Assembly (NCBI GenBank): GCA_965198235.1
Contig: OZ240248.1
Span: forward strand, 1,152,001-1,216,000
Origin: Candidatus Poribacteria bacterium
Lineage (GTDB): Bacteria > Poribacteria > WGA-4E > WGA-3G
Length of the DNA: 64,000 bases
Reading direction: 5' to 3'
In this document: positions 1-53,626 of the stretch, in pieces
Layout of the letters: each line of letters opens with the position of its first letter
Numbering within the stretch: the stretch's first letter is position 1
The notes under the pieces: model-generated
The model's input: only the letters and a program-made list of their open reading frames with translations
Databases searched by the model: none
Told to the model about the DNA's origin: nothing
Position numbers and translations under genes: made by a program

Positions 1-163
1 TGCTCCTAATTTCTCGTTTTGGGTTAAGTCAACGTACAAGTTTCCATTCCGAGTCGCGACGTGACCAGAAACCTGCTCGGAATGAAATTAGGTTTCCTTA
101 AATGGCATAATTTGTCTTTGCTTTACATTTGGAGAGCAGTCCAGGAACCCATAAATTAAAAAT

Positions 164-520
164 ATGAGACACCTTGCGGTCGTTATCGTTATGATTATTG
201 TGTGGCTCAACGGCTTAATCTGGTTGGGGAAGCAGGTCGACCCGAGTACGAAGTATCAGTCAGAGGTTGAATACAAGTACGCTCGGTACTGCGCAGGATG
301 CCATGGAAACAATGGAGAGGGCAACGGACGTATCGGACGTTTCAAAAAATTGGATCCCGCAGACCTAACGGACAACAACCTTTGGGAGATGCACAGCGAT
401 GAGCAATTGCTGGATAGTATCAATACGGGGAAAGATGATATGCCAGCGTTTTACTATTACCTCAATGATGAGGAACAACGGGAGATACTCGCCTATATTA
501 AGGAGACGTTTCGTCCGTAA
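164..520 (+). CDS. Membrane-anchored monoheme cytochrome c
   Basis: N-terminal hydrophobic helix, CAGCH heme motif, distal MPAF Met ligand. Confidence 0.85.
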   Translation: MRHLAVVIVMIIVWLNGLIWLGKQVDPSTKYQSEVEYKYARYCAGCHGNNGEGNGRIGRFKKLDPADLTDNNLWEMHSDEQLLDSINTGKDDMPAFYYYLNDEEQREILAYIKETFRP

Positions 521-544
521 CTTGAAAACAGATCTTTAAAAATC

Positions 545-691
545 AGATTTCTAACTATGGGTCTCTGAGCTGTGCTCCATTACATTCCGCACAGGTTTCC
601 GGTTCAGTTTAAATCCTTTTCAAACCTTGAGCAGGTTTTTACTTTACTGAAAACCATCGTGGAACGATGCCCAGATTTGATAGTTTAAAAA
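545..691. mobile_element. MITE-like element with two imperfect inverted arms (family B)
   Basis: Left arm TTTCTAACTATGGG...TGCTCCATTACATTCCGC resembles 43905-43960; right arm AAACCATCGTGGAACGATGCCCAGATTTGATAGTTTAAAA resembles 14808-14860. Confidence 0.7.
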
Positions 692-765
692 TTTGTTTGC
701 ATCCTGAAACTTTGGGGTGTTAATATATTGCAGGCTAAATTTAAAGTATAAAGGAGAAACTAATT

Positions 766-1515
766 ATGAAAGTTTTAGTCGCTTTGCTTGTCTTTGGAAT
801 GCTGGCGAGTGTTGCGTTCGCAGGCAACATCACCGGCACCGTAATGTATGAAGGCGACGCACCCGCGCGTCCTGACTTGACAGCAACCAAGGACCAGCAT
901 TGTATTGACGCTGTAGCAGGCACAAAATCCGAGGCACTTGTTGTCTCAAAAGGGAAAGGTCTCAAGAACGTTGTCATTTACGCGCGCGTCCGCGGTGCCA
1001 AAGTTACTGTGCCAGATAAAAATCCCGTCATGGACCAGAAGGGATGCGCTTACTACCCGCACGTTCTCGCGGTTGTTGCCGGTTCTACCATCGATATTAC
1101 CTCCAGCGACCCAGTGGCGCACAACGTCCACTCCCACGCCAAAAAGAATGACGCGATAAACTATCAGATTCCGCAGCCCGGAAAAGCTATCCCACACAAA
1201 GTCGCCAAGGCTGAAGATATTAAGTTCACGTGCGATATCCACGCGTGGATGACCGGCTACATCGTCGCGGTTAATAGCAACTATTTTACGGTCACCGGTT
1301 ACAAAAATGCTGAGGACGGATGGCTCAGTTCAGGTGCGTATGAAAAATCAACGGATCCCGGCAATTATACAATCGCAGATGTGCCTGCTGGTACGGTCCG
1401 TGTCGTTGCATGGCATGAAGAACTCGGTTCAGCAAACAAAAAGGTTGAAGTTCCAGCGAGTGGCGATATTGCTGTAAACTTCACGAGTGCTGACTTTAAG
1501 AAACGCGCCAAGTAA
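766..1515 (+). CDS. Secreted cupredoxin-like / carboxypeptidase-regulatory-like domain protein
   Basis: Signal peptide, DQKGC, HNVH and CDIHAWM (type-1 Cu-like ligands); AAGGAG RBS. Confidence 0.8.
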   Translation: MKVLVALLVFGMLASVAFAGNITGTVMYEGDAPARPDLTATKDQHCIDAVAGTKSEALVVSKGKGLKNVVIYARVRGAKVTVPDKNPVMDQKGCAYYPHVLAVVAGSTIDITSSDPVAHNVHSHAKKNDAINYQIPQPGKAIPHKVAKAEDIKFTCDIHAWMTGYIVAVNSNYFTVTGYKNAEDGWLSSGAYEKSTDPGNYTIADVPAGTVRVVAWHEELGSANKKVEVPASGDIAVNFTSADFKKRAK

Positions 1516-1699
1516 TAGTTCGCAACAAATTCTATTAAAAGCCGCCGCGGGTCGGTGAATACCCGCCTTAATTTACAACAGAAAGAGGCGGCGTTCTTCC
1601 CCAAAGTAGTAGGGTCTTTAAAAGCCACACGCGGCTTTCTCCCTCCGTATGCCGTTCACAATGGATGCCTAAAGTTGGGGTGCCACGCCGGGATTTTTG

Positions 1700-3616
1700 A
1701 TGACGAAAATATCTAAAAAAAGGCTCTATCTCATACTTGGCTGTGTACTTATCGCTTATGCCGTGTTAGCCGTTGCGCCGGTGTTTGCACAGGACGCGAC
1801 CGAGGCTGAATATCGCACCTTCCCAAAGATTGGCAGCCGAAACGCAGCATGGATCGCTGCGCAACTCCACCTGTTATTCGGATCTTTTATTCTCGGTGTC
1901 CCGATGTTCGCCGTTATCATCGAATTTATCGGCTGGAAGACGAAGGACATGCGATACGATCGGATGGCGCAAGAGTTCATTAAACTCTGTATGGGTGCGT
2001 TTTCGACGACAGCCTTACTCGGTGGTGTTCTCGTCTTCATCCTCATCTGGTGTTACCCCAAAGTGATGACGAAGCTCAGTGGGATATTCGGACCGACGAT
2101 GATTTTTTACGTTGTCCTATTCTTCGGGGAAACCTTTACGCTTTACCTTTACTCCTACGGATGGGATAAGATGCAGGGACACCATAAAGGGTGGCATCTT
2201 TTCCTTGGTGTTCTCTTGAATGTGTTCGGCACTGCGATCATGTTCGTTTCTAACTCATGGTTGAGTTACCAAACCAGTCCTGCAACCCAATACGGTGTAC
2301 TATCTGAAGGAAGACGGAAATCTTGGATAGAGGAAAAATTGGCTGCAGATCCAGCACTCACGCCTGAAACCGCTATGGAGGGGGTCACAAGCCATACGAC
2401 AGTGCCGCTCCACAACGAGACAACAGGCGAGTTCATGGGGACCGTTTGGGATGCCGTCAACAATTTTACGTGGATGCCTGTTAATATCCACCGCCTCGTC
2501 GGGAACATCGCTTTCGGAGGATCGATTGTAGCGGCTTATGCCGCGTTCCGATTCCTCGTCGCCAAGACGAAAGAGGACAAAGCACACTACGATTGGATGG
2601 GCTATACTGGAAACTTCATCGCACTCTGCGGACTCATTCCACTGCCTTTCCTCGGCTATTGGCTCGGTAGAGAAATCTACATGTTCAATAACACGATGGG
2701 CATTAACATGATGGGGAGTCTGTTCTCTTGGCTATTTATTATTCAGGCAGTGATGATTGGTGTCCTGTTTATTGGGGCAAACTACTATCTTTGGTCAGGC
2801 ATGGGGCGGATTGAAGGGGCAGAGGTCTATGCGCGCTATCGTCCGTATATGATTACCGTTATCATTATCTGTGTTGCAATCTGGATGACGCCACGGACAC
2901 TCTCTAAGATCTCAAGTGCCAATGAACTGAGCGCGATGGGCGGTGCAAACCACCCACACCTCGGATTGTTCGGCTTGATGACTGCCAAAAATACGGCGGT
3001 TAACATCATTATTCTCACCACTTTCTTGAGTTTCCTATTTTATCGGCGTTCAGGCAAAATACCTACGGCGAGTTGGAAAAAGGTTGGCAATATCGCTATC
3101 TCTTCGGTCTTTTTCCTCGCGACTGTCTCAATTGTCGTTATCGGTATCGTCGGATTTACCGTTCCGACAGATTTACGGGTCAATATCCTTACGCCTTATC
3201 AGGTCCTGGTTGCGCTCGCTGTGATGGCAGTCGTAACAATCGTCGATATTTTTATGTACCGCAAGGCGACAACATCTGGCACCATTAAATGGGGAGAGAT
3301 GACAGATCGCTCACAATATGTGTTAATTCTTGTGGCAATTACGTTTACTTCCTTGATGGGACTGATGGGATACGCGCGCTCAGGGCTTCGAGAGGCGTGG
3401 CATATCTTCGGGGTCATGCAGGATACGTCTGCTGATGCCTTTACCCCGCTTCTCAGTGAGGCAGTGAATATGGTGGCAATCATCATGGTAGTCTTCTTTG
3501 CGCTCGTCGGGTTTATCTTCTGGCTCGGTTTGTGGGGCGAAAAGAAGAAGGAAGAGCCAGCAGCTATCACCGAACCAACTGTTGCTGCGGAAGGTGATTC
3601 AGAAACCCGCTCGTAA
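1700..3616 (+). CDS. Cytochrome bd-like oxidase subunit I (CydA-like, Nitrospira-type)
   Basis: Many TM helices; QLHLLFGSFILGVP, FFGET, NIHRLVGN and GYARSGLREAW align with CydA heme-ligand regions; no cydB nearby. Confidence 0.8.
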   Translation: MTKISKKRLYLILGCVLIAYAVLAVAPVFAQDATEAEYRTFPKIGSRNAAWIAAQLHLLFGSFILGVPMFAVIIEFIGWKTKDMRYDRMAQEFIKLCMGAFSTTALLGGVLVFILIWCYPKVMTKLSGIFGPTMIFYVVLFFGETFTLYLYSYGWDKMQGHHKGWHLFLGVLLNVFGTAIMFVSNSWLSYQTSPATQYGVLSEGRRKSWIEEKLAADPALTPETAMEGVTSHTTVPLHNETTGEFMGTVWDAVNNFTWMPVNIHRLVGNIAFGGSIVAAYAAFRFLVAKTKEDKAHYDWMGYTGNFIALCGLIPLPFLGYWLGREIYMFNNTMGINMMGSLFSWLFIIQAVMIGVLFIGANYYLWSGMGRIEGAEVYARYRPYMITVIIICVAIWMTPRTLSKISSANELSAMGGANHPHLGLFGLMTAKNTAVNIIILTTFLSFLFYRRSGKIPTASWKKVGNIAISSVFFLATVSIVVIGIVGFTVPTDLRVNILTPYQVLVALAVMAVVTIVDIFMYRKATTSGTIKWGEMTDRSQYVLILVAITFTSLMGLMGYARSGLREAWHIFGVMQDTSADAFTPLLSEAVNMVAIIMVVFFALVGFIFWLGLWGEKKKEEPAAITEPTVAAEGDSETRS

Positions 3617-3655
3617 TGAAATGGAGAGCGGAGCGAAAACTTAATAGTTAAAAAT

Positions 3656-5167
3656 ATGTCAAGAAATACACTCATAAAAATTGCGAGTCTAATCCTAATG
3701 GTGGTGAGTTTCATCGCCTATATTGCGGGTGCATCCGCATTTCCGATTGCCTCGGAGAACTTGCTACCGTGGTCGGTCTGGTTTCTGATTTCAGTGATCG
3801 TAAACATCGTTTTGTGGTCGAGCGTCATGAAGTTGTTGACGTTTTCGCTTGCCGTGATATGGTTTTACGCCTTTGTCGCGGGCCTTGTCCCGGAAAGTTC
3901 TACGGCAGTAAACCTGACTGAGCTGGATTGGAGCGACCCAGACGCAGTTGCGGAGCAGGGTGCCTTGGTGTTTAACGGCAAAGGTCAATGTAGCGCGTGT
4001 CATACCGTCGATACCTCCGCACCGAAAGGGAGATGTCCCGATCTTACAGACATCGGCATTAACGCCGCCAGCCGCGTCCCTGGTATGGAGGCAAAAGCCT
4101 ATCTCATTGAATCGCTTTACGAACCCGCCAAATATCTTGTCCCCGGATACGGCAAGATTATGCCAGAGATATGGAAAGCCCCCATCGCGCTCTCTAAATT
4201 AGAGATTGAAGCAGTTATCGCCTATCTCCAGAGTCAAGGCGGCGAAATTGATCCCACTCCGTTTGATGAGCCTATAGACCGCGCAGACACCGCAACCGCC
4301 GCTGCAGCACTTCCACCCCTGCTCACCGGTGACCCAGATATGGGTAAAAAAGTTTTTGTGACTGCCGCATGTATCTCATGCCATGTAGTACAAGGTATAG
4401 AAAGTCCGGCAGCGGGTGAAACCGATACAGATTTTGAAGTCGTCACTGCGCCTGAACTCTCCGAAATAGCTGCGTTTAATGACATGCGCTACCTTGAGGA
4501 GTCAATCCTGAAACCCAGCGCACAAATTGTCAGCGGTTACGGTGCCGTTACCGTCCGTGCCAACGGGACGACCTTGCAAGGAACACTTGTTTCGCAGGAT
4601 ACAGAACAGATTATCGTCCGAACCAAAACAGCCGATGGCGTGGAAGAAGAGCACACCCTCTTGCTGAGCGAGCTTGATGATGAACCGATTGAGGATCTCA
4701 CGAATCTGCAAGCGAACGGCTATTTTACGTTGACACTAACGCCTGTGGATGCGGATACTCCGGTAAGCGGTGAAATCGTTTCGGAAACTGATGACACCGT
4801 GACGCTTAAGGTCGACGGCGAAAATCGGACATTTTCTAAAACAGATGTGAAAAGCCAAATGACCGTTATCACTTTTGATGATGATGAAATTGTTGGCGAA
4901 TACGTTTCAGGCACGATGGACGACGACGAAATCGTTCTAATGGTTGACGGGAGCGAAGAGGTATTTGATACATTTGATTTAAACGAAGCTACTTTTACCC
5001 GTGCCTTTGGCAAAAAGTTGTTCGTTACATCGCCGATGCCCGAAAACTTTCCGATGCTGTTATCGGTATTGGATATGAGTAATTTGCTCTCTTTCTTAAG
5101 CACACTCACTGGGGCAACAGCGGAAGCAGCTTCTGAAGGGGCAGCGGAGGGAACTCCCGCGGAATAA
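3656..5167 (+). CDS. Membrane-bound diheme cytochrome c with large acidic insertion
   Basis: Three N-terminal TM helices, CSACH and CISCH, YLIESLYEP / YLEESILKP motifs. Confidence 0.85.
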   Translation: MSRNTLIKIASLILMVVSFIAYIAGASAFPIASENLLPWSVWFLISVIVNIVLWSSVMKLLTFSLAVIWFYAFVAGLVPESSTAVNLTELDWSDPDAVAEQGALVFNGKGQCSACHTVDTSAPKGRCPDLTDIGINAASRVPGMEAKAYLIESLYEPAKYLVPGYGKIMPEIWKAPIALSKLEIEAVIAYLQSQGGEIDPTPFDEPIDRADTATAAAALPPLLTGDPDMGKKVFVTAACISCHVVQGIESPAAGETDTDFEVVTAPELSEIAAFNDMRYLEESILKPSAQIVSGYGAVTVRANGTTLQGTLVSQDTEQIIVRTKTADGVEEEHTLLLSELDDEPIEDLTNLQANGYFTLTLTPVDADTPVSGEIVSETDDTVTLKVDGENRTFSKTDVKSQMTVITFDDDEIVGEYVSGTMDDDEIVLMVDGSEEVFDTFDLNEATFTRAFGKKLFVTSPMPENFPMLLSVLDMSNLLSFLSTLTGATAEAASEGAAEGTPAE

Positions 5168-5397
5168 CAAATAACGAATCGTGCTACGGTGAACGTAGTC
5201 CCATACCGTCGCTGGCGAGGAGTGCATCCTCGCTCTGTAATGTCCAAGTAAAGGATTTTCTTTTAATTGCTTGAAAAGTTTCAAATCCAGTCTCAAATTA
5301 ACCAAAAGCCTGCCTGAAATGAAATTATGCCTTAAATGGCATAATTTGTCTTTGCTTTACATTTGGAAGGCAGAGCAGAAACTTAATAATTAAAAAC

Positions 5398-6174
5398 ATG
5401 AAAAGACTGTCGCTCTTCACAATATGTCTCATAATTCTGGTTGGTTCTTGGGCACTTCTGCGGTTCTTCGTTGGAGGTGTCGTCTCAGTGCCTATACCGG
5501 GCAGCGTGATTGCGATGTATATGGGGTTGATTATAATCGCTATCTTGGTGCATATCTCCGTTGAGGACTCACTCTTTCGAGAATTTCTGCGCCCCATCCA
5601 TGAAACACTCATCGATGACAATCGCCGTGTCCGCCGCCGTGTTATCGCAGTGTTAATCCCGCTGTTCTTACTCGGTTATACCTATTCGATTATCGCACAA
5701 CGGACGAACCCGCCTGGGAATCCGCGTGATGCCCATCCATCACCACCCCTTGAATTAACCCATAAGGATGAAGTTATCGGCACCATGCAAGAGGTCGAAA
5801 ACCCCTTTCGCCACTATGAAAAGGACGATCCAGAAGCGTTCAAAGCGCACGTTGAAAACGGCAGGCGCGTCTACTACCAGAACTGCTTTTACTGCCATGG
5901 AGATCATTTGGATGGACAGGGGCACTTTGCGACTCACCTCCAACCGATTCCTGCTAATTTCCAAGATCCGGGGATTATCCCTAACTTCCAGGAGTCTTTC
6001 CTGTTCTGGCGAATAGCCAAGGGCGGACCGGGATTACCGGCAGCGGGGACACCTTGGGATTCAGCGATGCCTATCTGGGAGAACTACTTGACAAAAGACG
6101 AAATTTGGGACGTGATTCTCTTTCTATCCGATTACACCGGTTATCAGCCACGAACCTTTGGGGAGGGACACTAA
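5398..6174 (+). CDS. Membrane-bound monoheme cytochrome c
   Basis: Three TM helices, CFYCH, SAMP distal Met. Confidence 0.85.
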   Translation: MKRLSLFTICLIILVGSWALLRFFVGGVVSVPIPGSVIAMYMGLIIIAILVHISVEDSLFREFLRPIHETLIDDNRRVRRRVIAVLIPLFLLGYTYSIIAQRTNPPGNPRDAHPSPPLELTHKDEVIGTMQEVENPFRHYEKDDPEAFKAHVENGRRVYYQNCFYCHGDHLDGQGHFATHLQPIPANFQDPGIIPNFQESFLFWRIAKGGPGLPAAGTPWDSAMPIWENYLTKDEIWDVILFLSDYTGYQPRTFGEGH

Positions 6175-6176
6175 AA

Positions 6177-7889: not shown

Positions 7890-7896
7890 GAATAAC

Positions 7897-8022
7897 TATG
7901 GTAAAACCCACAATTATTTGGGCACGTGGGAGGGGTTTGCAACCCCGATTGGGGTCGGGCTTACAAAGCCCTCCTACAAAGACGACCGGAGAAGTGTCTA
8001 CTTATTTCTAGGGTTTACCATA
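7897..8022. mobile_element. MITE-like element (family F) with nested inverted REP pair
   Basis: Ends TATGGTAAAACCC / GGGTTTACCATA; inside GTGGGAGGGGTTTGCAACCCCGA and an inverted copy; same end type at 26428-26542 and 31019-31150. Confidence 0.7.
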
Positions 8023-8159
8023 ATAACGAATAATCAATCCTCAGTTATCAGTTCCAGGATAAGAGGTACTTTAACTTTAACCATCAACTCGTCTACAGAT
8101 ATTTGTGCTAAAGCACGAGTTGATGGTTAAAACCGATAACTACTCATAAAGGAGAAAAA

Positions 8160-8942
8160 ATGAAAACCTATCTTTTGCCAAGTCTCGCTATACTTCTCGC
8201 GTGCTGTTATGTCAGTAGTGCTTTTGCGGCTGATAGCGATGCAGGCGAAATGGAAATGTTAGTATTTCCGGATTCCTATGCTGCTGGGAGCGTTAGCGGT
8301 GGCGGCACAATTAGCGGCGTAGTGACGTTTGAAGGCGACGTGCCTGAGATGAAAATGCTGGAAATCACCAAAGACCAGGCGATCTGTGGTGCTACCGAAA
8401 AGTATGATGAATCGGTTGTCGTCAGTGAAGGCAACGCTTTAAAAAATACGATTGTCTACCTAATCGACATTTCAAAAGGCAAAAATTTTGACAAAACAGC
8501 CAAACCCGAAATCGACCAAAAGGGCTGCAATTTTAATCCGCATGTTCAAGTTATCCCAGTCGGTACCCGGTTAACAATGCTCAATAACGATAAAGTTAAT
8601 CACAACGTTCATATCTTCAGCAGTATCAATAAACCGGTTAACAAGCAGCAGACGAAAAACCGTAAGAAAATGCGGCTTGCTGGTATGAAGAAAGCGGAGG
8701 GTCCCGTCCCCGTCAAATGTGACATTCACGGATGGATGTCCGCTTGGATCGCTTACGTACCGCATCCGTATTTTGCTGTGACGAATGAAAAGGGTGAATT
8801 CACACTTGAAGATGTGCCCGCAGGCACCTATAAACTCGGTTATTGGCATGAGGCATGTGGAACGAATAGCGGTTCTCCCGCTTCTGTTACCATAGAAGCT
8901 GGCGGCACCGTCACACAGGATTTCACGCTAAAACTTAAGTAG
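8160..8942 (+). CDS. Secreted cupredoxin-like protein, paralog of 766..1515
   Basis: Signal peptide, DQKGC, HNVH, CDIHGWM, WHE. Confidence 0.8.
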   Translation: MKTYLLPSLAILLACCYVSSAFAADSDAGEMEMLVFPDSYAAGSVSGGGTISGVVTFEGDVPEMKMLEITKDQAICGATEKYDESVVVSEGNALKNTIVYLIDISKGKNFDKTAKPEIDQKGCNFNPHVQVIPVGTRLTMLNNDKVNHNVHIFSSINKPVNKQQTKNRKKMRLAGMKKAEGPVPVKCDIHGWMSAWIAYVPHPYFAVTNEKGEFTLEDVPAGTYKLGYWHEACGTNSGSPASVTIEAGGTVTQDFTLKLK

Positions 8943-9120
8943 CAGTCGGTAGTCAGCATGCTTCGCAGTGAGAACTATCAGTAGGGCACCTTGTGCCAGG
9001 CATGTTTGCGATAACCGCCACAAATACCTGATGGTTCCCGAAAGCCGATGGCTGATAGCCAATACGCATACACGGTTACCTTGAATGCAACAGCATCTCT
9101 TTGCTGATAGCCGAAAGCCG

Positions 9121-10056
9121 ATGGCTGATGGCCAATACGCCGACAGCCGAATTGAGGTAGAAAATCTTTCGCATTCATATCAGACACGACGCGCGCTTGA
9201 CAATGTCAGTTTTAGCGTCTCATGCGGCGAGATTTTCGGGCTTCTGGGACCGAACGGGAGTGGGAAAACAACCCTTTTTAAGATTCTGTCCACACTGATG
9301 CCGATAACGTCCGGCACTGTTCGTATCCTCGGATATGACTTGACCGCTGAGGTGAAGGCGGTTCGGGATCTCTTAGGTGTTGTTTTTCAACACCCAGGAC
9401 TGGATGGCAAGCTCACCGTCGTCGAAAATTTACGGCACCATGGGCACCTCTATGGACTTGCTGGCAAAACGCTGCGTCACCGAATTTCGGAACTCCTCGA
9501 ATGTTTTGGCATCACGGACAGGGCGACGGAACGTGTTGAACGCCTATCCGGCGGTTTACAAAGGCGGGTTGAAATCGCAAAAGCTTTGCTCCATTCTCCT
9601 CGCGTTCTACTCCTTGACGAACCAACGAGTGGGTTGGATGTAGTTGTACGCCGGCAACTCAATGACTATCTCGGTGCACTCGCGGACACAGAAAATATCC
9701 TCGTTCTGCTTACGACGCATCTGTTAGAGGATGCTGAGGCGTGCAACAGGGTAGGTATTCTGGATTCAGGCAAGTTGGTCGCTCTCGGAGTACCTGATGA
9801 ACTCAAGGCACAAGTCGGTGGTGATGTTATTATCATAGAAAGTGGAAATCGTGAAACACTTTCTGGGGCTATTGCTAAGAGATTCGGCGTTTCGCCGGTG
9901 TTGACTGGTAATCAGCTTCGTGTTGAATGTGAGCGGGGACATGAGTTCGTCCGGAACGTGGTTGCCGCGTTTCCAGATGAGATTCAATCGGTTCGATTTG
10001 GGAGACCGACACTGGAGGACGTATTCATAAAATTGACAGGCAATCCATTCGTGTAG
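9121..10056 (+). CDS. ABC transporter ATP-binding protein (ABC-2 type)
   Basis: Walker A GPNGSGKT, LSGG signature, LLDEPT; start uncertain because it lies in repeats. Confidence 0.9.
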   Translation: MADGQYADSRIEVENLSHSYQTRRALDNVSFSVSCGEIFGLLGPNGSGKTTLFKILSTLMPITSGTVRILGYDLTAEVKAVRDLLGVVFQHPGLDGKLTVVENLRHHGHLYGLAGKTLRHRISELLECFGITDRATERVERLSGGLQRRVEIAKALLHSPRVLLLDEPTSGLDVVVRRQLNDYLGALADTENILVLLTTHLLEDAEACNRVGILDSGKLVALGVPDELKAQVGGDVIIIESGNRETLSGAIAKRFGVSPVLTGNQLRVECERGHEFVRNVVAAFPDEIQSVRFGRPTLEDVFIKLTGNPFV

Positions 10057-10092
10057 AGGAAGGATAGGGAAAATTAAAAGAATCCAAAACTG

Positions 10093-10206
10093 CAAGCCCG
10101 TAACATTGTCCCGCAAGCCTCTATAGGCTTGCACTGGGAGGGCGGATCTACGGAGAGGTAGGTGTATGCTTAACCCACCTCAACGAACCGCAAGGAAAAT
10201 TAAAAA
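10093..10206 (+). repeat. Family A start-site element carrying a nested 26-nt palindrome
   Basis: AGCCCGTAAC...GGAGGGCGGATCTACGGAGAGG...GAACCGCAAGGAAAATTAAAAA; contains the ATG of the permease gene. Confidence 0.8.
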
Positions 10207-10978: not shown

Positions 10979-11049
10979 ACTTGTTAAGAACAAAAATCTT
11001 ACGCGCTTTCACTTTTCAATAAGCGAGACGCGTTGTTAAGGAGGACTTG

Positions 11050-11715: not shown

Positions 11716-11735
11716 GCTGAAGGAGAAAAATAACG

Positions 11736-13559: not shown

Positions 13560-13593
13560 CGGAGCGATGGATGGAAGGATGCGCCTTTCCTTT

Positions 13594-13673
13594 ATCATCT
13601 TGTAGGAGGGGTTTGTAACCCCGATGTCATCATCATCTTGTAGGAGGGGTTTGTAACCCCGATGTCATCATCT
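13594..13673 (+). repeat. Tandem 38-bp duplication of a GTAG-type REP hairpin
   Basis: ATCATCTTGTAGGAGGGGTTTGTAACCCCGATGTCATC occurs twice in tandem. Confidence 0.9.
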
Positions 13674-13715
13674 CCTCCTATCTTCCATTCTTTTTGTATT
13701 TCGTGGAAACTTGGC

Positions 13716-14714
13716 ATGAAGCAACACGTGAGTTATAACCCATGGCTACACAGAACGGCACGCCTCACCGCAGGCGCGACTTTCTTATTGATTGTCATTG
13801 GTGGAATTGTCACAAGTACCGAGTCCGGGTTGGCTGTTCCTGATTGGCCAACAACCTTTGGATACAATATGTTTCTCTATCCACTCTCGGAAATGGTAGG
13901 AGGCATCCTATACGAGCATAGTCATCGGCTCATGGGCTCTCTCGTTGGACTTTTGACAGTCGGTCTCTTTATTTTCCTTTTGGCGAGAGATTCCCGCAAA
14001 TGGCTGAAATGGCTTGGGTTCGCTGCTTTGGTCGCTGTTATTGTCCAAGGCGTTCTCGGTGGACTTCGGGTTACACAGATTAATCGCAACTTCGCGATAG
14101 TGCATGCGTGCCTCGCACAAGCGTTCTTTGCCCTGCTTTGTGGAATTGCTTGGTTCACCTCTCGCGATTGGCGGCAAGGCTTTTTTACAGCAAGTTTTGG
14201 CTTGCAAGCTACGCCAAAAAGTGAACCCGCAATCGCGGCAGCACAGAAACTACGGCGGTTAAGCCTGATTACGACATGCCTTATCTATGTGCAGCTCATC
14301 TTTGGCGCAATCCTGCGGCATACCGGAAGCAGACTTGACGCACATCTTCTCTTTGCCTTCCTTGTCGCGCTGCATATCTTTTTGTTGGTGAGACGTGTTC
14401 TTGGAACGAACCGTGACGCACAAAGAATTGGACAATCGATGCCTATGTTATTGTTGGGCTTGCTTGCTATTCAGTTGATGCTCGGCACTGGGGCGTTTTT
14501 CGCGAAGCTTACCGCCCTCGGAGAAACATTCGCAACCGCACTCACAGTCGCAATCACTACGGCGCATGTCGCAGTCGGTGCCTTCATGTTAGTGAGCAGT
14601 TTTGTGCTTACCCTGAAAATCTATCGGGTCACTGATGCATCGGTAGTTGTCGGTGCACCCGCAGGTGATGCCGGCACCTTCCCAGTAACGGGTGGGACCC
14701 GGGTTACAGAGTGA
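13716..14714 (+). CDS. ctaA: Heme A synthase (COX15/CtaA)
   Basis: SGLAVPDWP, EHSHR, QGVLGGLRV, conserved His residues. Confidence 0.9.
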   Translation: MKQHVSYNPWLHRTARLTAGATFLLIVIGGIVTSTESGLAVPDWPTTFGYNMFLYPLSEMVGGILYEHSHRLMGSLVGLLTVGLFIFLLARDSRKWLKWLGFAALVAVIVQGVLGGLRVTQINRNFAIVHACLAQAFFALLCGIAWFTSRDWRQGFFTASFGLQATPKSEPAIAAAQKLRRLSLITTCLIYVQLIFGAILRHTGSRLDAHLLFAFLVALHIFLLVRRVLGTNRDAQRIGQSMPMLLLGLLAIQLMLGTGAFFAKLTALGETFATALTVAITTAHVAVGAFMLVSSFVLTLKIYRVTDASVVVGAPAGDAGTFPVTGGTRVTE

Positions 14715-24194: not shown

Positions 24195-24331
24195 TTTGTG
24201 CCCCTTTCGTAACACATTAGCTGCGAGCCGCGCAGTCCGTAACGAAGTGGTTCTCACTGCGAAGCAGGTTCTACGGAGAGGCACGTAAAATACTTTACCC
24301 GTCTCACCGAACCGCAAGGAATAATTAAAAG

Positions 24332-33575: not shown

Positions 33576-33643
33576 ATGACACAATGGGTCGGTGCCGATT
33601 CTCCGTTCCACGCCCAATTCCGGGTCCTAACCTATCAGGCATT
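33576..33643 (+). pseudogene. Orphan 3'-end fragment of a serine hydrolase paralog
   Basis: Translates MTQWVGADSPFHAQFRVLTYQAL versus the C-terminus MTQLIGDSPFHAQFRVLTYQSITD of 33755..34933. Confidence 0.8.
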
Positions 33644-33754
33644 GTCCCGCAAGCCTCTATAGGCTTGCGCCCATGAATAACAGCAGTCAGCAGTCAGGTA
33701 GGGTTGCGTAGCAACCCTACCTGAAAGCCAACCGCTATTTTACAGGAGTTTTCA

Positions 33755-43905: not shown

Positions 43906-44069
43906 TTTTTTAACTATTTAATCTGATCACTGCTCCATTACATTCCGCAGTGGTTTTTGGTTAATTCTAACCCGCTCCAGGTGTTCAAAGAGCTCTTGAT
44001 TTCACCAGAAACCGTTGTGAAACGTAGTGAAACAACGCCCAGGAGCCCATAGTTAAAAAAGTTAAAAAA
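43905..44069. mobile_element. Complete family B MITE-like element filling the intergenic space
   Basis: Left arm TTTTTAACTAT...TGCTCCATTACATTCCGCAGTGGTTT; right arm AAACCGTTGTGAAACGTAGTGAAACAACG...ATAGTTAAAAAA ending just before ATG 44070. Confidence 0.75.
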
Positions 44070-45074: not shown

Positions 45075-45279
45075 TGCTCCCTACTCCCTTGCAAACGCTC
45101 CGGCGACTGGGTTTGTTGATGGCAATCGGCAATCGGTGGTCAGCAGTCAGTAGTTTGCTGTGAGAATCAATCCGCCTCTCCCTGCTGGCGAGGTGTTTTG
45201 CTTGGGGTTTTTGCTTGGGGTTTTTGATAGGGTGTTTCTGTGGATTTCTGCGGATTTCCTCTAGTAACCTCGCCTCTTT

Positions 45280-47064: not shown

Positions 47065-47570
47065 TATGGCGTTTCTCCTGTTGCCTCGTAGTGAGAGTTT
47101 GCCTCTATCCTAACATACGAACTGATGAGAGTCAAGTTAATCGTTCCTCTTACGGGTAGGATCGATTTCCTTCCCACTGATAAATTTTCATAGTAACCTT
47201 CACAGAAGATTTCTGAAAAAACCGCGCAGAATCCAGTCAGGGCATGGGTTTATAGCATCCTTTGGGATCCATCACTGTCCGAGTTTTGCTATGAAAACTG
47301 TGAAATTAGCATTGTTTAGAATCATGTATAGGAGCCGACTGCTGACCGCTGATGGCTGATCGCTGACTGTTATTCTTCTGGCGACCGCAAACGAAATTCT
47401 ACCTAAACTTGTTTTTTTCTTGCTTTTGTGTTACGAATTGTGCTAAACTATTGCAAATTATCACAGCAGAACCCAATTTAAGCAGGACCTGAATTAATAT
47501 TCGCAAAATTCTGGGAAATGTGGTAAACTCTATCCTAAAGTCATCCGTTGTTGTCTGAGGAGACGTTCAA

Positions 47571-49391
47571 ATGTACGATAAGAAGAATCGTAAAATTGCT
47601 GGTCCAGGTCCTGATGGGAACGACCTGTTTATTGAAGATGACGAGGAACTTGAAGAGGAACTCACTCCCGAAGAGGAGGCAATGAGTTCTGGCTATTCGT
47701 TACAGTTAATTCACCACATTATTGCCGACACCCCGGTAGATGACCGGCGCCGTCGCTGGCTCATGGAACTCCGTCGCGCTATTCTCAACGATGAAGGCGA
47801 ATTTCAAGAGAGGGTCCGCTCGATTCAGCAGGAGGCACTCCGTATCCACGCAGAAATGGAGGAGCAGATTGAGAAGCTCACCGCACCCGCAAATCGAATC
47901 GGAACCCTACTCGGATTGCCCAAGGAGGACATTGCCCGCGTTATCGTCGGCGGCTCCGAATACTACGCGAATATTGATACCGAACTGAAAGCATCCGACC
48001 TTAAAAAGGGGTTCAGCGTCCTGTTGAACGACGCTTTTGTCGTTGTCGGTGAACTCGGATACAACGATGCAGGTCCTATTGCAAAAATAGCCGATGTCAT
48101 GCCGGATGGACGGCTCCGTATCGGTCAAGAACCGAATGCTCAAACTGTCATCCTTGAACGCTCCACAGACCTCGTAGATGTGAAACTGAAACCCGGTGAT
48201 GAAGTTCGGATCGACTCCAACTTCCGTGTCGCCGTTGAACATATCGCCGCGAAAGAGACAGACGCTTACGCGCTTGAAGCGGTGCCGAATATACCGTGGT
48301 CCAAGGTGGGTGGGCTTGACGATACCATCCAACGCATTAAAGACACGATCGAGCTCCCGATCCTACATCCCAAACTCTTTGAACGCTTCCAGTATAGTGC
48401 GCCGAAAGGTTTCCTTCTCCACGGTCCTCCGGGATGTGGAAAAACACTCATTGGCAAAGCGACCGCTTACAACTTAACCCAACGTCTCCGAAGGGAAAGC
48501 GGCGAGGATGTTGAAGGCTGTTTCCTACACATCAAGGGACCCGAGATCCTCAACATGTGGCTCGGTGAATCTGAACGGAAAGTGCGAGAGATTTTTCAGA
48601 TTGCTCGTGAGAAAAAAGAAGATGGCAAGTTGGCGTTTGTCTTTATCGATGAGGCGGAGTCAATATTGGGGACACGACGTGCACTCAGATCCCACAGTAT
48701 CTCGAACACACTTGTCCCGATGTTTTGTGCAGAGATGGACGGTATTGAATCTCTGCAGGATGTCGTCATTATCTTGGCGACAAACCGTCCCGATCTAATT
48801 GACCCTGCCGTTTTACGTCCAGGGCGAATTGATAGGAAAATTAAAGTAACACGTCCAGATGCAAAGGCTGCAAAGGATATCTTCCGTATCTACCTCACCC
48901 CTGAGATACCCATTGCTTCACTCCTTGATCAGGAGAATGATACCGGAACAGGAGAAGGTGAAACACCCCCCGAAGTCATCCCGGCGGAGAAAGCCGTTGC
49001 AGATCTAATCGCACAGGCCGTTGATGAGATGTTCCGTGAAGACGAAGACAACCGATTCCTTGAAGTTTCTCTCAGGAGTGGGAGACGCGATATTCTCTAT
49101 AAAGGACATCTGTGCAGCGGTGCAATTATTGAGTCGATTGTGCAACGGGCGAAGGAGTCCGCACTCAAACGTGCGATTCAGAACCCAGAGAAGGAAAGTG
49201 GTATCACGCGCGCCGACCTGTTAGATGCACTCGCCGCAGAGTATAGCGAAAGCGAAATCTTCCCGCCAACCGAGGCGACTGAAGACTGGCTCAAGCTCCT
49301 TGATTACGATCCAACGAATGTTGTCAAAGTTACGCCTATCAAATCTGAGAAACAGGAGCGACGCAAAGCCTCCGGTTCGCGCGTCATTTAG
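47571..49391 (+). CDS. arc: Proteasome-associated AAA ATPase (ARC/Mpa-like)
   Basis: Coiled coil and OB region, GPPGCGKT, IKGPEILNMWLGESER, FIDE, RPGRID; first gene of the proteasome operon. Confidence 0.9.
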   Translation: MYDKKNRKIAGPGPDGNDLFIEDDEELEEELTPEEEAMSSGYSLQLIHHIIADTPVDDRRRRWLMELRRAILNDEGEFQERVRSIQQEALRIHAEMEEQIEKLTAPANRIGTLLGLPKEDIARVIVGGSEYYANIDTELKASDLKKGFSVLLNDAFVVVGELGYNDAGPIAKIADVMPDGRLRIGQEPNAQTVILERSTDLVDVKLKPGDEVRIDSNFRVAVEHIAAKETDAYALEAVPNIPWSKVGGLDDTIQRIKDTIELPILHPKLFERFQYSAPKGFLLHGPPGCGKTLIGKATAYNLTQRLRRESGEDVEGCFLHIKGPEILNMWLGESERKVREIFQIAREKKEDGKLAFVFIDEAESILGTRRALRSHSISNTLVPMFCAEMDGIESLQDVVIILATNRPDLIDPAVLRPGRIDRKIKVTRPDAKAAKDIFRIYLTPEIPIASLLDQENDTGTGEGETPPEVIPAEKAVADLIAQAVDEMFREDEDNRFLEVSLRSGRRDILYKGHLCSGAIIESIVQRAKESALKRAIQNPEKESGITRADLLDALAAEYSESEIFPPTEATEDWLKLLDYDPTNVVKVTPIKSEKQERRKASGSRVI

Positions 49392-49463
49392 GCTTTTAAG
49401 TTAGTAATTCTGGAGTTAATAACTTAAAAAATGGAACGATCCTTAGAGGCACATAATTAAAAA

Positions 49464-50978
49464 ATGGGAAGACTTTTTGGAATCGAAACTGAATACGGAA
49501 TAACACTCGAAAATGAAGCGCACATTGATGCCGTCAAGCAGTCAATTGAGCTGGTAAAAAGTTACCGACAAGAAGATTTTCGACCTGTGTGGGACTACCG
49601 CGGCGAGGACCCGTTTCGAGACGAACGCGGCTTTCGGGCGAGCGCGCTTTCCAATCATCCCGATGAGAAGGAAGAGGAAAAGCGCGACCAAAAACGCAAT
49701 ATTAAAGAACGACTCTCTTTTGCTGAAATCAAAAGCGATCACATCCTCGTCAACGGCGCACGGTTCTACAACGATCACGCACATCCAGAGTATTCAACAC
49801 CTGAATGCAGCAGTCTCTTTGACCTTGTCGCACACGATAAAGCCGGCGAACGCATCCTTCAACGGTGTGCCGAAACACGCAGCCAGAAACTCGGAAAACG
49901 CGTGCTTTTATACAAGAATAATACCGATTTCCATGGGCATAGTTACGGTTGCCACGATAACTACCTGATGGCACGCGAAGTACCGTTTGAAACCCTCAAG
50001 CAAGGTATCATGCCGTTCTTTATCACACGCCAGATCTTCGCAGGTGCCGGAAAAATCGGCATTGAAACTGAAGCCGGACTCGCAACGCCAGGACACTACC
50101 AGTTATCTCAACGATCCGATTTCTTTCACGTCGAGGCGAGTGTGGATACCATGCACAATCGTCCTATCGTCAACACGCGAGATGAACCGCACGCTGATGC
50201 ATCTAAATATCGTAGGTTGCACGGCATCGCCGGGGATGCAAATATGTCCGAATACGCCACCGCACTCAAAGTCGGCACGACAGCACTCGTGATTGCCTTG
50301 ATTGAACAGCGGAGGATTCCAGAAAGTTTAGTGCTCGTCAACCCGATTGATACCATCAAAACTGTATCGCATGACCAGACATATCGTTGGATAGTAATGA
50401 CGGCAGAAGGGAAAACGATGTCCGCTATTGACCATCAGCGTGAGTATCTTGCACTCGCACAGAAGCATCTCGGTGAAGCTGTGGGGCTTGAAACCGACTG
50501 GGTGCTCACCGAGTGGGAGGATACCCTCAACGCGCTTGAGACGGACCCAATGTCGCTCACTGATCGGCTTGATTGGGTCGCGAAGAAATGGTTGCTTGAA
50601 ACGTTTGCTGAGGAAGAGGGAGTCGCGTGGGATGACCCGTGGCTCCAAAGTTTGGATTTAGAATATCACAACATCGATCTTGATGAAGGGCTATACTATG
50701 GGATTCCGATGCGGCGTATCGTCACGGACGAACAGATTGATGCTGCGCTCCATAATCCGCCTGCCGACACGCGGGCATACTTCCGGGGGCGCGCTGTAGA
50801 TCGATTCAGTAACTCTATAAAGGCTATCCAGTGGGATAGTATTACCTTTACTGTAAACGGGCGCACCCGCGAAATCAATCTAAATGCCCTCGCAGATGCG
50901 GAGATCGCGCGTCAATATAACGAGGCACTCGATCAATCGCCGACTGTTGAGACGCTCATTGAAAAATTGCCTCTATAA
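49464..50978 (+). CDS. dop: Dop-like depupylase/deamidase (PafA2)
   Basis: GIETEYG, NGARFYNDHAHPEYSTPEC, YKNNTD, GCHDNY, RRLHGI. Confidence 0.85.
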   Translation: MGRLFGIETEYGITLENEAHIDAVKQSIELVKSYRQEDFRPVWDYRGEDPFRDERGFRASALSNHPDEKEEEKRDQKRNIKERLSFAEIKSDHILVNGARFYNDHAHPEYSTPECSSLFDLVAHDKAGERILQRCAETRSQKLGKRVLLYKNNTDFHGHSYGCHDNYLMAREVPFETLKQGIMPFFITRQIFAGAGKIGIETEAGLATPGHYQLSQRSDFFHVEASVDTMHNRPIVNTRDEPHADASKYRRLHGIAGDANMSEYATALKVGTTALVIALIEQRRIPESLVLVNPIDTIKTVSHDQTYRWIVMTAEGKTMSAIDHQREYLALAQKHLGEAVGLETDWVLTEWEDTLNALETDPMSLTDRLDWVAKKWLLETFAEEEGVAWDDPWLQSLDLEYHNIDLDEGLYYGIPMRRIVTDEQIDAALHNPPADTRAYFRGRAVDRFSNSIKAIQWDSITFTVNGRTREINLNALADAEIARQYNEALDQSPTVETLIEKLPL

Positions 50979-50994
50979 AAGAAGGAGATATAGA

Positions 50995-51192
50995 ATGACA
51001 GCCAAGATGATTGCTCAGCTTGAACGGAAGCAAAGAGACACCAAACCCATTGGACCCGGTGATGGCGATGACGATAACGAGGGACCCAAGCGACAGAAAG
51101 TCAGTCGGCCCGATACGCAAGAACTGCTCAAACGGATGCGGCGTGTTGACAAAGATCAGTCCAGACGTTACCGCCAAAGAACGGGGGAGTGA
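50995..51192 (+). CDS. ubact: Ubiquitin-like protein UBact (Pup analog), 65 aa
   Basis: AAGGAG RBS, charged disordered sequence ending YRQRTGE (R[ST]G[EQ] signature), located between dop and prcB. Confidence 0.9.
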   Translation: MTAKMIAQLERKQRDTKPIGPGDGDDDNEGPKRQKVSRPDTQELLKRMRRVDKDQSRRYRQRTGE

Positions 51193-52052
51193 TGAACGAT
51201 AAAGGCGGCTTCCCTAAAGAGTACGGAAAATTTGCGCTACAGGGAGTCATGAACCATAAAGGGGACTTCCTAAACCTTTTAAAACACGCAAACTATCCCT
51301 TGAAAATAGATTTGCCATCGGAAGTTACACAGCGCGGTACTGATATTGAAATAGCACACAGTACGACTGTCGTCGTTGTTCGTTACCGGGACGGAGTCAT
51401 GATCGCGGGTGACCGGCGTGCTACCGCTGGCACTTCTGTCATCTATGATCGGGCGGAGAAAGTTTTGCAGATTGATAAGCATTCTGTACTCGCTATTTCA
51501 GGTTCACCCGCAATCGCTTATGAGATCGCCAGAATATTGGAGCACTCGTTTCAATACTTTCGCCGCAGCCAGCTCCAAGAGTTGAGTCTTGAAGGCAAAC
51601 TCCGAATGCTATCACGGCTCATCCGGGAGAATCTGCCCATGGCACTCCAAGGCATCGGAGGTGTTATTCCGATTTTTGCCCTCTACGATTTGAATGCCCC
51701 TGATGACGAGAATGGTGGAAAAATTTTCTTCTATGATGCACTCGGTGCGCATTTTGAAAACGTAAATTTTGCCACGACCGGTTCCGGCTCCATCTGGATT
51801 CGCGGTGTGTTACGCTATATCTCTCGATTCGGCGATGCGCCTTTGCAAGAAATGGATGAGCGGCAGGCGACTATCACTATCTTACGCCTCTTGGACACCG
51901 CAAGCGAGTACGATGCCGCGACAAGCGGTTACAACGCCAGGGCACAAATTTTTCCAAATGTCAAGATTGTGACACGCACCGGCGTTGAAGATATTTCCGA
52001 TGATGAATTGGAGGCATGTTACGCTGAAGCACAACCGGACGGAGAGGAATAG
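51189..52052 (+). CDS. prcB: 20S proteasome beta subunit (alternative start 51249)
   Basis: HSTTVV processing site, AGDRRAT, TGSGS. Confidence 0.9.
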   Translation: MMNDKGGFPKEYGKFALQGVMNHKGDFLNLLKHANYPLKIDLPSEVTQRGTDIEIAHSTTVVVVRYRDGVMIAGDRRATAGTSVIYDRAEKVLQIDKHSVLAISGSPAIAYEIARILEHSFQYFRRSQLQELSLEGKLRMLSRLIRENLPMALQGIGGVIPIFALYDLNAPDDENGGKIFFYDALGAHFENVNFATTGSGSIWIRGVLRYISRFGDAPLQEMDERQATITILRLLDTASEYDAATSGYNARAQIFPNVKIVTRTGVEDISDDELEACYAEAQPDGEE

Positions 52053-52175
52053 CCGTCAGCATATTGGCCGTCAGCAGTCGGCGGATGGTGGTTGGCAGTC
52101 GGTAGCCGGCGGATGGCAGTCGGTTCAGAAGTTTTCGCCTAACAAGGGGTTTCTCTTAAGATAACCTCAAAACCT

Positions 52176-52500
52176 GTAGCCTGTAATGAAATGGAAGGCG
52201 GATTTAAGAAAGGCAGCCGATAGTTCAAACCCGCGACGTTTGACCGCAAGGAATAATTAAAGAATGCGAGATGAACCGTATCACGTAGCTCGTAATGAAA
52301 TGGAGAGCGGATTTCAGAACGGGATGTCAAAGTTCAAACCCGCGACGTTTAACCGCAAGGAATAATTAAAGAATGCGAGATGAACCGTATCACGTAGCTC
52401 GTAATGAAATGGAGAGCGGATTTCAGAACGGGATGTCAAAGTTCAAACCCGCGACGTTTAACCGCAAGGAATAATTAAAAAATGCGAGATGAACCGTATC
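52176..52500 (+). repeat. Three tandem 109-bp units: family A element plus the first 19 nt of prcA
   Basis: Units start with GTAGC at 52176, 52285, 52394; ATGCGAGATGAACCGTATC at 52264, 52373, 52482. Confidence 0.92.
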
Positions 52501-53252
52501 GCTGGATAGAAGCGATTCAGGACCGACGAGATTACATTGAAGACCAGCTCCGCGTCGGGAGCCCTGTTGTAGGACTTACCTATAACGAAGGCGTGGTGCT
52601 ACTCACTATTGGTAGAGGACAACGCAAAATTTTTGAGGTGCATGACCGAATCGCGCTCTCCGCAATCGGACACCCTGCCGATATTGAACGTCTCCGAATG
52701 CTTGTTACCGACACCGCCAGCGTCCAAGGTTTTCAAAATGCTACCGAAGATGTAAACCTACACCGACTCACGAACTTTGTTTTAGCACATACCTTCAAAC
52801 AGGCGTTTGAGTCCATTGTTGGTGAAGCGTATATCATTAAAATGTTGCTCGCCGAACTCGGCAGCACTGATGATAAAAGTCGTTTTACCTGTATCAACTA
52901 CGACGGTAATGTCCGGACAGACATAACCTCTACTGTTATCGGCGGTACAGAAGCAATCGAGACGGGAATGCAAAACTATCTCACGACTACTTCTACAGGT
53001 ACCGACAGAGATTTAACCGCTGCACTTCAGTTGGGTTTAGAAGCGTGGGCAGTTGGTAAGGAATTGAGTTCACGAGAACCGGAGGAAGCTGAATCGGAGG
53101 AAACCCAGATAGATACTGCGCAGATGCACGAAATTATTAATGCTGCACGGGAAGACGGTGAGATTGAAGCAGGGGTTTTGGAAACCATGCAGCGCGGTGC
53201 AAGTAAGTTTCGTCTGTTAACCTCTCAGGAAATTGAAACTGCCCTCCCGTAA
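52482..53252 (+). CDS. prcA: 20S proteasome alpha subunit
   Basis: EPYRW...DRRDY, GSPVV, RKIFEVHDRI. Confidence 0.88.
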   Translation: MRDEPYRWIEAIQDRRDYIEDQLRVGSPVVGLTYNEGVVLLTIGRGQRKIFEVHDRIALSAIGHPADIERLRMLVTDTASVQGFQNATEDVNLHRLTNFVLAHTFKQAFESIVGEAYIIKMLLAELGSTDDKSRFTCINYDGNVRTDITSTVIGGTEAIETGMQNYLTTTSTGTDRDLTAALQLGLEAWAVGKELSSREPEEAESEETQIDTAQMHEIINAAREDGEIEAGVLETMQRGASKFRLLTSQEIETALP

Positions 53253-53626
53253 TTTCTCTACTGACACGCTTTGTAAATGCCCATTCGCAAAATTCAACTT
53301 TCTAACTATGGGAATCTGTTAACCATCGAAGAAACACCCAAGCAAAAACACTTGTGTTTTAACATCTATAATGGAGTCGAGTTGATGGTTAAACTGCTCT
53401 ACTACGTTCCTTGCCCCTCCCAGTAACGGGCGGGGACCCCGGTTTTCGGTGAATTCCAACCCGCTCCAGATGCGCAAAGGTTTCTGATTTCACCAGGAAC
53501 CATCGTGAAACGAAATTAGGTTTCCTTAAATGGCATAATTTTGCTTCGCAGTGTCCCGCAAGCCTCTATAGGCTTGCGCAGAATGCTTTACATTTGGAAC
53601 GATGCCCAGGGGCTTATAAATTAAAA

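Follow-up and report, generated by a model that had tools for sequence, protein, structure and literature searches.

Fixed DNA words that overwrite short target motifs in one genus of sponge-dwelling bacteria

The small dispersed repeats (SDRs) of cyanobacteria, "very small mobile repeats", are the closest known system to the units described here. Elhai et al. 2008 reportedly defined SDR1-8 in Nostoc punctiforme, with sizes of 21-27 nt. These repeats are said to be nested in other repeats, in heptamer arrays and in each other, and to keep a conserved structure with compensatory changes; an RNA intermediate or a reverse transcriptase has reportedly been proposed for them. According to the accessible parts of two papers, SDR5 targets HIP1, and among genomes rich in HIP1 none outside Nostocaceae was found to have SDR-like repeats (PMC4390886 / PMC5861425). 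Miniature elements of the MITE type are larger, 70-300 bp, with terminal inverted repeats of 15-30 bp, in the sections available of PMC3733652. A different process, SPDIR, is outlined for Acinetobacter baylyi in the available portions of two preprints. A patch of 3 to ~100 bp from single-stranded DNA donors replaces target bases at microhomology joints, with no transposase, and a high rate requires loss of the suppressors RecJ, ExoX, RecA, DprA and RecFOR (bioRxiv 10.1101/2024.07.02.601687; 10.1101/2023.11.22.568220).

The present analysis started from a window of 64 kb, the whole stretch of DNA shown here, and extended to related genomes, which are denoted by handles such as G087. In this one genus, whose members live in sponges, a number of fixed DNA words overwrite short target motifs with a net gain of 3-39 bases, and land in each other, in other repeats and, in frame, in genes. 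There are 42 genome-wide copies of a 26-mer, about 88 of a 17-mer and 90 of a unit of 44 nt, for which a first-pass annotation had given 42 nt. Comparisons of filled and empty sites revealed for each word a constant sequence, its own target of 4-6 nt and a nearly constant net size. What had been described as insertion is a replacement, in which 2-6 target bases are lost without target duplication: the 44-nt unit replaces a GWART loop, the 16-nt unit 5 nt of RYYNN, the 30-nt unit part of C|NRTGA, and GGTTTCC replaces WRCC. Within genes, surviving events are multiples of three only. On balance, and with modest confidence, the units are read as several families of very small, SDR-like mobile words, each installed by "nick-and-overwrite". 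Variable flanks and orthologous sites that are filled or empty bear out the earlier view that they are independently mobile and too small for classical MITEs.

Like the SDRs, the units are dispersed, have many copies with unrelated flanks (42, 88 and 90 copies) and show recent mobility at filled and empty orthologous sites. The nesting reported for SDRs has its counterpart in 24 of 42 30-mers that lie in host loops or in the 17-mer family. Against the range of 21-27 nt reported for SDRs, the 30-mer (+23 to +27) falls within and the +3, +11 and +39 units fall outside. Other differences from the SDRs as reported are the phylum, the overwriting of target bases and the absence of reverse transcriptase from the five genomes richest in the 26-mer. 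Specific short targets are shared, in so far as the partly accessible sources describe SDR5 in HIP1. Judged by the accessible text on GTAG-tagged REPs and RAYT (TnpAREP; PMC3733652, PMC8266576, PMC3116915), common traits are palindromes of 20-40 nt, some in frame in ORFs, a GTAG tag, here on one host family, and the presence of Y1 enzymes. Unlike REPs as covered there, the units carry no GTAG or CGTC tag, flank no Y1/RAYT gene and have their junctions away from the C|T (or CA) cleavage dinucleotide. They resemble Rickettsia palindromic elements (RPE) and MITEs, within the sections available (PMC3733652), in being dispersed, non-autonomous and in frame in working genes. They differ from MITEs as defined there in their size of 7-44 nt, the lack of terminal repeats and of target duplication, and the loss of target bases. 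Among the full texts that could be searched, which included neither Elhai et al. 2008 nor subscription journals, none described the units or the GGTTTCC edit, and an Rfam scan of the window gave only 23S rRNA, one tRNA and one sub-threshold chance match.

The features of the window are the following (coordinates, strand, description):

73..139, +, host hairpin of the family A type, judged from sequence, with a variable stem around the G-AAYGWART-GGA loop motif; carries the long unit
84..130, +, copy of the 44-nt unit, 47 nt long with its +3 edit, replacing the 5-nt host loop
91..97, +, the word GGTTTCC within the long unit's left arm, where it edits TGCC with a net +3
3613..3625, +, an example of an empty host loop motif
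5321..5364, +, 44-nt unit whose arm is unedited; G087 has an empty orthologous site, a net 39 nt shorter
8959..8975, +, 16-nt unit with a host pyrimidine, amid heptamer repeats; spanned by a contig from an RNA run
10105..10134, +, hairpin unit of 30 nt that occupies the loop of a host of the family B type; G018 has an edited form of the unit at the orthologous site
24250..24266, -, copy of the 16/17-nt unit within the right arm of a host of the GTAG type; the site is empty, and a net 11 nt shorter, in both G006 and G024
33641..33670, +, 30-nt hairpin unit, intergenic, outside any host loop
53512..53595, +, composite of the 44-nt unit, the GGTTTCC edit (53519-53525), the 16-nt unit (53542-53553/53580-53583) and the 30-nt unit (53550-53579, net +26)
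59277..59293, +, 16/17-nt unit with one mismatch; the orthologous site in G018 holds a degenerate copy and G087 none

Empty host loop motifs number 11 in the window and 390 on the main contig.

The core of the longest unit lies at 96-130, 5330-5364 and, split, at 53524-53595, and the true unit is the 44 nt that replaces the 5-nt host loop, with a net gain of 39 relative to G087 and G067. The copies annotated at 88-129 and from 53516 are 3 nt longer because both contain the GGTTTCC edit. All combinations of arm and inner variants of the 44-mer have been found (29/27/11/8/5/5/4/1), and the edits are therefore independent.

Exact copies of the 26-mer stand at 10107, 33643 and 53552, as reported. 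It was called a 26-nt palindrome; it is a recurrent unit, but of 30 nt, about 22 nt of which form a hairpin with one compensatory pair (36 C-G, 5 T-A and 1 mismatch). A total of 117 30-mer occurrences were examined, 70 of them without an alignable ortholog, and 15 distinct clean filled/empty sites were obtained (net +27 in six, +24 in seven, +23 and +26 in one each). Over 16 target rows, T was seen 12, G 13 and A 14 times at +3 to +5, and C 10 times at -1. One junction is fixed and the other sloppy. An exact match to the 26-mer was sought in viral contigs and none was found.

The 17-mer is exact at 8959 (+) and 24250 (-), the partial copy starts at 59277 rather than 59279, with one mismatch, and the other partial copy, at 53542, is indeed a unit split by the 26-mer. 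None of 100 shuffles gave any match. The final base of the 17-mer (T in 44, C in 42 and A in 2 of 88 copies) is host-derived, and the unit itself is of 16 nt. It replaces 5 nt, with a net gain of 11; the 5-nt segment was replaced in 14 of the 16 flank sets with an empty counterpart, among 82 sets examined. This geometry comes from individual ortholog comparisons and paralog matching.

The smallest word, GGTTTCC, was present in the long allele of 33 of 116 three-base gaps, in 29 distinct contexts. The short allele had W in 32, G or A in 32, C in 31 and again C in 29 of the 33, between nearly uniform flanking columns. When other filters were applied, 32 of 115 such indels had it in the long allele, 22 of them coding and 10 non-coding, and only one of the 115 had GGTTTCC in the short allele. 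Of the 17 events represented in at least three genomes, 14 had the long allele in the minority. A symmetric GGCC intermediate was discarded, since the short allele begins with G in 0 of 33. A template switch on a cis hairpin proved weak, with a stem of 2 bp that is not extended by the flanks. GGCC itself is depleted (O/E 0.16) and is one among several avoided palindromes.

Nesting at 53552 had been given as three levels. It is real and deeper: a host hairpin contains the 44-nt unit, which contains the 17-mer, which contains the 30-mer, with the +3 edit in the arm. Units become nested because each one contains the target of the next, and copying among sister repeats probably adds to this. At the 24250 host, G087 has the 44-nt unit in place of the 16/17-nt unit. 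The first-pass annotation put the 24250 copy inside a family A element and proposed preferential copying into hairpin loops; the copy is in the right arm of its host, just 3' of the loop motif and outside the loop. The proposed preference is borne out by the 44-nt unit, 88 of whose 90 copies have the host loop motif at their left side, by 13 of 42 30-mers and by several 17-mers that replace REP loops. It fails for the 10 of 42 30-mers that lie in frame in unrelated coding genes with empty orthologs, for the 17-mer where it goes into the 44-nt unit's unpaired tail, and for the +3 edit, which breaks the stems of the 30-mer and the 44-mer. Short sequence targets are a better account of unit placement than hairpin loops. 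The words are probably selfish or neutral rather than functional.

A bias in orientation to replichore or gene strand was not established (11 vs 6 within the syntenic block and 19 vs 9 relative to gene strand, with replichores poorly defined). The replication-strand bias, initially 9 of 10, fell to the same 11 vs 6 with more events, and none was seen by skew domain. The "empty" alleles come from genomes about 10% diverged, and some junction differences are therefore later mutations.

Under nick-and-overwrite, the target strand would be cut, and a short single-stranded DNA copy of the word, made from an existing genomic copy, would be joined through pairing of 1-3 nt at one end. The other donor end, which resembles the displaced 2-5 nt, would replace them as a flap; ligation and replication would then fix the change, and a reverse transcriptase step would be unnecessary. 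An IS200/IS605-type Y1 (HUH) enzyme is the leading candidate for cutting and joining, and a 7-nt donor held by 2 bp without a dedicated protein is hard to picture. The four units need not have one mechanism in common. No enzyme, donor molecule or intermediate was seen in this analysis. A tentative extension, possible but doubtful, is that a dedicated DNA "writer" exists in the genus, which would nick short motifs and put fixed words in their place with no need of a classical reverse transcriptase, much like natural prime editing. Its smallest product, WRCC to GGTTTCC, would be self-propagating and lengthen proteins across the genome by single residues; the cyanobacterial SDRs would be explained by this machine as well.

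Several other explanations have been considered. The units may be minimal non-autonomous substrates of IS200/IS605 TnpA or RAYT, with HUH strand transfer at one end and host repair at the other, which we think unlikely. The fixed and sloppy junctions of the 30-mer would fit, its hairpin tip is similar to the hairpin at the right end of the IS605-type tnpB elements that abound in this genome, and one host family begins with the REP tag GTAG. Y1 genes occur in 64 of 65 genus genomes, the exception, G080, also having the fewest repeat candidates, but this correlation is one genome. The untagged units adjoin none of the six Y1 genes of G000, which have palindromes of their own alongside, the junctions avoid the TnpAREP site as given in the accessible text, target bases are lost, and neither the +3 word nor a 21-nt sibling has a stable hairpin. 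A motif search gave no further RAYT-like ORF, the stand-alone Y1 protein that was tested fits IS200/IS605 TnpA by its score and lies under the RAYT cut-off, and the RT or RAYT gene flanked by units that had been suggested was not found. Among protein families of at least four members, none was flanked by units except at chance level (2/4), and a NucS-like nuclease was dismissed as below cut-off and equally frequent in repeat-poor genomes. SPDIR-type short-patch recombination or gene conversion, with nuclease-resistant copy fragments and copy-number feedback in place of a dedicated enzyme, seems distinctly improbable. Replacement joined at microhomologies is the SPDIR pattern in the available text, some 30-mer tails match the flanks of other copies, the best donor-flank match is 9.6/16 vs 8.2 at random sites, and the spread of composites among sister hosts would be accounted for. 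Homology at the joints here is 1-5 nt only, and the +3 edit has no flank homology beyond 4 nt. SPDIR, as outlined in those preprints, is rare, variable in size and sequence and dependent on microhomology annealing; here the words are invariant, net sizes are fixed, and the +3 data suggest a fixed size and target between random flanks. A loss of RecJ, ExoVII, MutS or MutL was not found, all four being present and open.

That a reverse transcriptase writes the words from an RNA template, by target priming or template jumping, appears more doubtful still. A fixed and a sloppy junction with 0-2 extra bases would suit template jumping, the region is found in RNA libraries, and 22 of 36 other genus genomes, in a patchy distribution, have a reverse transcriptase match. 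However, no RVT_1 match was found in G000, G006, G024, G018 and G014, the five genomes richest in the 26-mer, which are in 1-2 contigs each and 94-96% complete. DinB was absent from 13 of 13 genomes and the LigD polymerase from five of five, and PolX looks non-canonical, as in two outgroups, apparently lacking the canonical acidic pair. A master or source locus was discarded, as 20 copies taken from genomes with few copies trace to several old insertion sites that are unrelated. That the units move as a block within a single long composite repeat, or are assembly artefacts, is hardly credible, and is already refuted for the 30-, 16- and 3-nt units. The 44-mer is nearly always in the same loop motif, and whole composites of 100-230 nt are also gained and lost. 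Flanks nevertheless differ widely among copies genome-wide, and the ten in-frame 30-mers lie in unrelated genes. Other genomes of the genus contain the units (26 of 36 and 23 of 29), and an independent RNA-run contig (8579-10127) covers the 17-mer at 8959 with 0 differences; they are therefore no artefact. Short-read contigs of other studies, the form in which read data were available, contain them as well.

How mobile repeats shorter than 50 nt move has been an open question since the SDR paper. Exact before and after alleles are available here from many related genomes, and the geometry of the reaction is therefore readable and testable. Over one in four of the three-base indels that separate these genomes is due to the +3 edit, and the 30-mers give unrelated proteins the same extra 8-9 residues, so that the process shapes the protein and intergenic evolution of the lineage. 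If a dedicated enzyme exists, it would represent a new kind of short-sequence DNA editor.

The small repeat units in this DNA are real and distributed genus-wide. All copies reported by the first-pass annotation are present in the window, where the 17-mer (a 16-nt unit plus a last base that varies with the host) has three matches at one mismatch, against none in 100 shuffles. The main contig (C1) of the source genome, G000, holds 88 copies of the 17-mer (one mismatch), 42 of the 26-mer palindrome (up to three mismatches) and 90 of the core of the long unit (two mismatches), a 44-mer first described as 42 nt. Among the other genomes of the genus, 26 of 36 have the 26-mer, vs. 1 of 24 genomes outside it; the long-unit core occurs in 23 of 29 genus genomes vs. 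0 of 81 others of the order. A contig from an RNA run of another study reproduces window positions 8579-10127 with 0 differences, including a 17-mer and most of a 26-mer. The recurrence across genomes and in this independent contig rejects an assembly artefact, and the flanks of the 26-mer and 17-mer, which bear no relation between copies, reject the idea of one long repeat.

The G000 assembly comprises 5.17 Mb in two contigs, and the sequencing runs containing window DNA come from sponge metagenomes. In the window, the units are surrounded by ordinary genes of the respiratory chain, the Pup-proteasome and rRNA. Neighbouring features are:

13594-13669: 38-nt REP, duplicated exactly
47571-55069: Pup-proteasome cluster (ATPase, two Pup-ligase-family genes, two proteasome subunits), matched in 65/65 genus genomes searched
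52176-52502: three 109-nt host repeats in tandem, flanked by proteasome subunit genes
62470-64000: promoter-like 48-nt repeat (four copies), then a tRNA, then 23S rRNA

No 16S lies directly upstream of the 23S, so the rRNA genes look unlinked. Elsewhere on C1, a 37-nt repeat (~57 copies) forms a dense array at about 2734000-2738000, probably a CRISPR array.

Unit borders were defined by comparing orthologous sites with and without a unit, using ~0.5 Mb from each of the genus genomes G087 and G018, 0.1 Mb from each of G006 and G024, and selected loci of further genomes; the alignments covered 529 kb of G000. At 5321-5364, G000 carries the 44-mer and G087 a bare 5-nt loop, so that 44 nt replace 5 (net +39). 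Conversely, the ortholog of window 24258 has a long unit in G087 and none in G000. There are 390 empty host loops. The second contig (C2) is a second haplotype of C1:775767-815774 (identity 99.3-100%). Where C1 has the 42-nt form of the long unit (C1:789087-789127), C2 has 2 other bases, so the host retains 3 extra nt; this absence is possibly an imprecise loss. C2 also has a 230-nt composite repeat missing from C1 at 792054.

The 17-mer behaves similarly: among 82 flank sets, 16 had an empty counterpart, and in 14 of these, a 16-nt stretch replaces 5 nt (net +11). What is lost is a segment of the type RYYNN, in several cases a REP loop. The true unit of the 26-mer is 30 nt long. Its 117 occurrences include 70 without an alignable ortholog and 13 filled in every ortholog; 15 distinct clean sites show net gains of +27 (6), +24 (7), +23 (1) and +26 (1). 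The 30-mer target has the consensus C|NRTGA, overwritten by the first four bases of the unit, while the opposite junction is sloppy. Copies in coding genes preserve the reading frame in both orientations. One stem pair is C-G in 36 copies and T-A in 5, with a mismatch in 1 copy, and a few copies have an inverted hairpin loop.

A fourth unit, which the first-pass annotation had not separated, accounts for the length difference between the window copies at 84-130 and 5321-5364, where TGCC is replaced by GGTTTCC. The 30-mer, REPs and genes all show the same change; in some 30-mers both arms have it, which restores the palindrome. When 207 genes were aligned three ways, this word was the product of 10 of 29 three-base indels (against a background of 0.25% of windows; p about 1e-19), and in all sequence examined it occurs in 33 of 116 three-base gaps, in 29 distinct contexts. 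The 33 short alleles read W (32), G/A (32), C (31), C (29), with near-uniform flanking columns. When the long alleles of 491 indels were searched without bias for recurrent words, GGTTTCC ranked first (39 events), with the word in the long allele at 32 of 115 three-base gaps and in the short allele at 1. Of 17 events covered by at least three genomes, 14 have the long allele in the minority. An invariant long allele, variable short alleles and the mostly minority state of the long form point to a gain. The non-coding density of GGAAACC/GGTTTCC is 0.72 per kb vs. 0.09-0.15 for five control 7-mers, about 5-8x. The junction is GG|C; GGCC, CTAG and several 6-bp palindromes are avoided genome-wide, GGCC with an O/E of 0.16.

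The units had been proposed to be copied preferentially into hairpin loops. The long unit does sit in host loops (loop motif on the left in 88 of 90 copies, expected right flank in 89), as do 13 of the 42 30-mers, but the nesting is explained by target motifs, not by loops as such. The 44-mer carries the 17-mer target in its unpaired tail and WGCC in its stem; C|NRTGA is present within the 17-mer, and WGCC within the 30-mer. Eight arm-by-inner combinations of the 44-mer were found, so the levels are gained or exchanged independently. The 30-mers outside host loops comprise 11 within the 17-mer family, 10 located in coding genes and 8 at other places. The 24 of 42 inside other repeats are an excess against ~2,400 non-coding target motifs, which needs, besides targets, either a preference for structure or copying from one sister repeat to another.

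Sibling words were also observed. A 21-nt word (56222-56242) overwrites a few bases after purine-G, mostly with net +21 in filled/empty pairs. The COX15-CtaA (heme A synthase) gene contains a 36-nt in-frame hairpin word (14181-14216), present in G087 and absent from G018, whose family recurs elsewhere. Across C1:1.15-1.62 Mb, compared with the same two genomes, other REP-like words (12-45 nt net) lie in frame in genes with changed flanking bases, and intergenic turnover is near complete between genomes with 90% gene identity.

Each unit family shows a fixed word, a target of its own, the loss of a few target bases and no duplication. On one strand, we read each event as 1-3 anchor bases kept, the word added, and 2-5 final bases resembling those displaced. 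This suggests, at slightly better than even chances, a nick at the target, at which a short DNA donor would be joined or copied, followed by flap replacement of the displaced bases. Plain short-patch recombination (SPDIR) agrees with the replacement geometry; it is at odds with the invariance of the words and the random flanks of the three-base edit, donor-flank similarity of the 30-mer barely exceeds random (9.6 vs. 8.2 of 16), and RecJ, ExoVII, MutS and MutL are all present. Writing by a reverse transcriptase is disfavoured: RVT_1 matches occur in 22 of 36 other genus genomes, but none in G000, G006, G024, G018 and G014, the genomes with the most 26-mers. Searches found neither DinB (0/13) nor LigD (0/5), and PolX looks non-canonical by its catalytic motif.

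The best named candidate remains a Y1/HUH enzyme of the IS200/IS605 type. A Y1 gene is present in 64 of 65 genus genomes, the sole exception being the most repeat-poor one, and the tip of the 30-mer looks like the right end of an IS605-type element. Against it, none of the six Y1 genes of G000 is flanked by units, unit junctions do not fall at C|T, and the data established no strand bias. A new, dedicated writer enzyme may underlie the units, at well below even chances. A single-copy NucS-like nuclease (C1:4986626-4987618) scores under the family cut-off and was matched in 8/8 other genus genomes searched.

The units work like the small dispersed repeats (SDRs) of cyanobacteria, with which they were compared through features that the original SDR paper is said to describe and through passages of PMC4390886 and PMC5861425. 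The original paper is cited in passages of PMC2884548 and PMC3116915; nothing on SDRs turned up when PMC3184786 and PMC3542288 were queried by term. By these features the units may be classed as SDR-like, not as members of SDR1-8 by descent. As described in the respective sources, neither MITEs (PMC3733652) nor REP/RAYT units (PMC3733652, PMC8266576) fit the units, and the invariant words set them apart from SPDIR (bioRxiv 2024.07.02.601687, 2023.11.22.568220). A full-text search of a literature library returned no description of the units or of the three-base edit, and look-ups of the edit and of the composite sequence yielded nothing relevant. The units belong to an already known yet unexplained kind of repeat, to which the genus adds a geometry of overwriting in which each unit has its own target, the lack of a reverse transcriptase match in the genomes with the most 26-mers and a recurrent net three-base edit.
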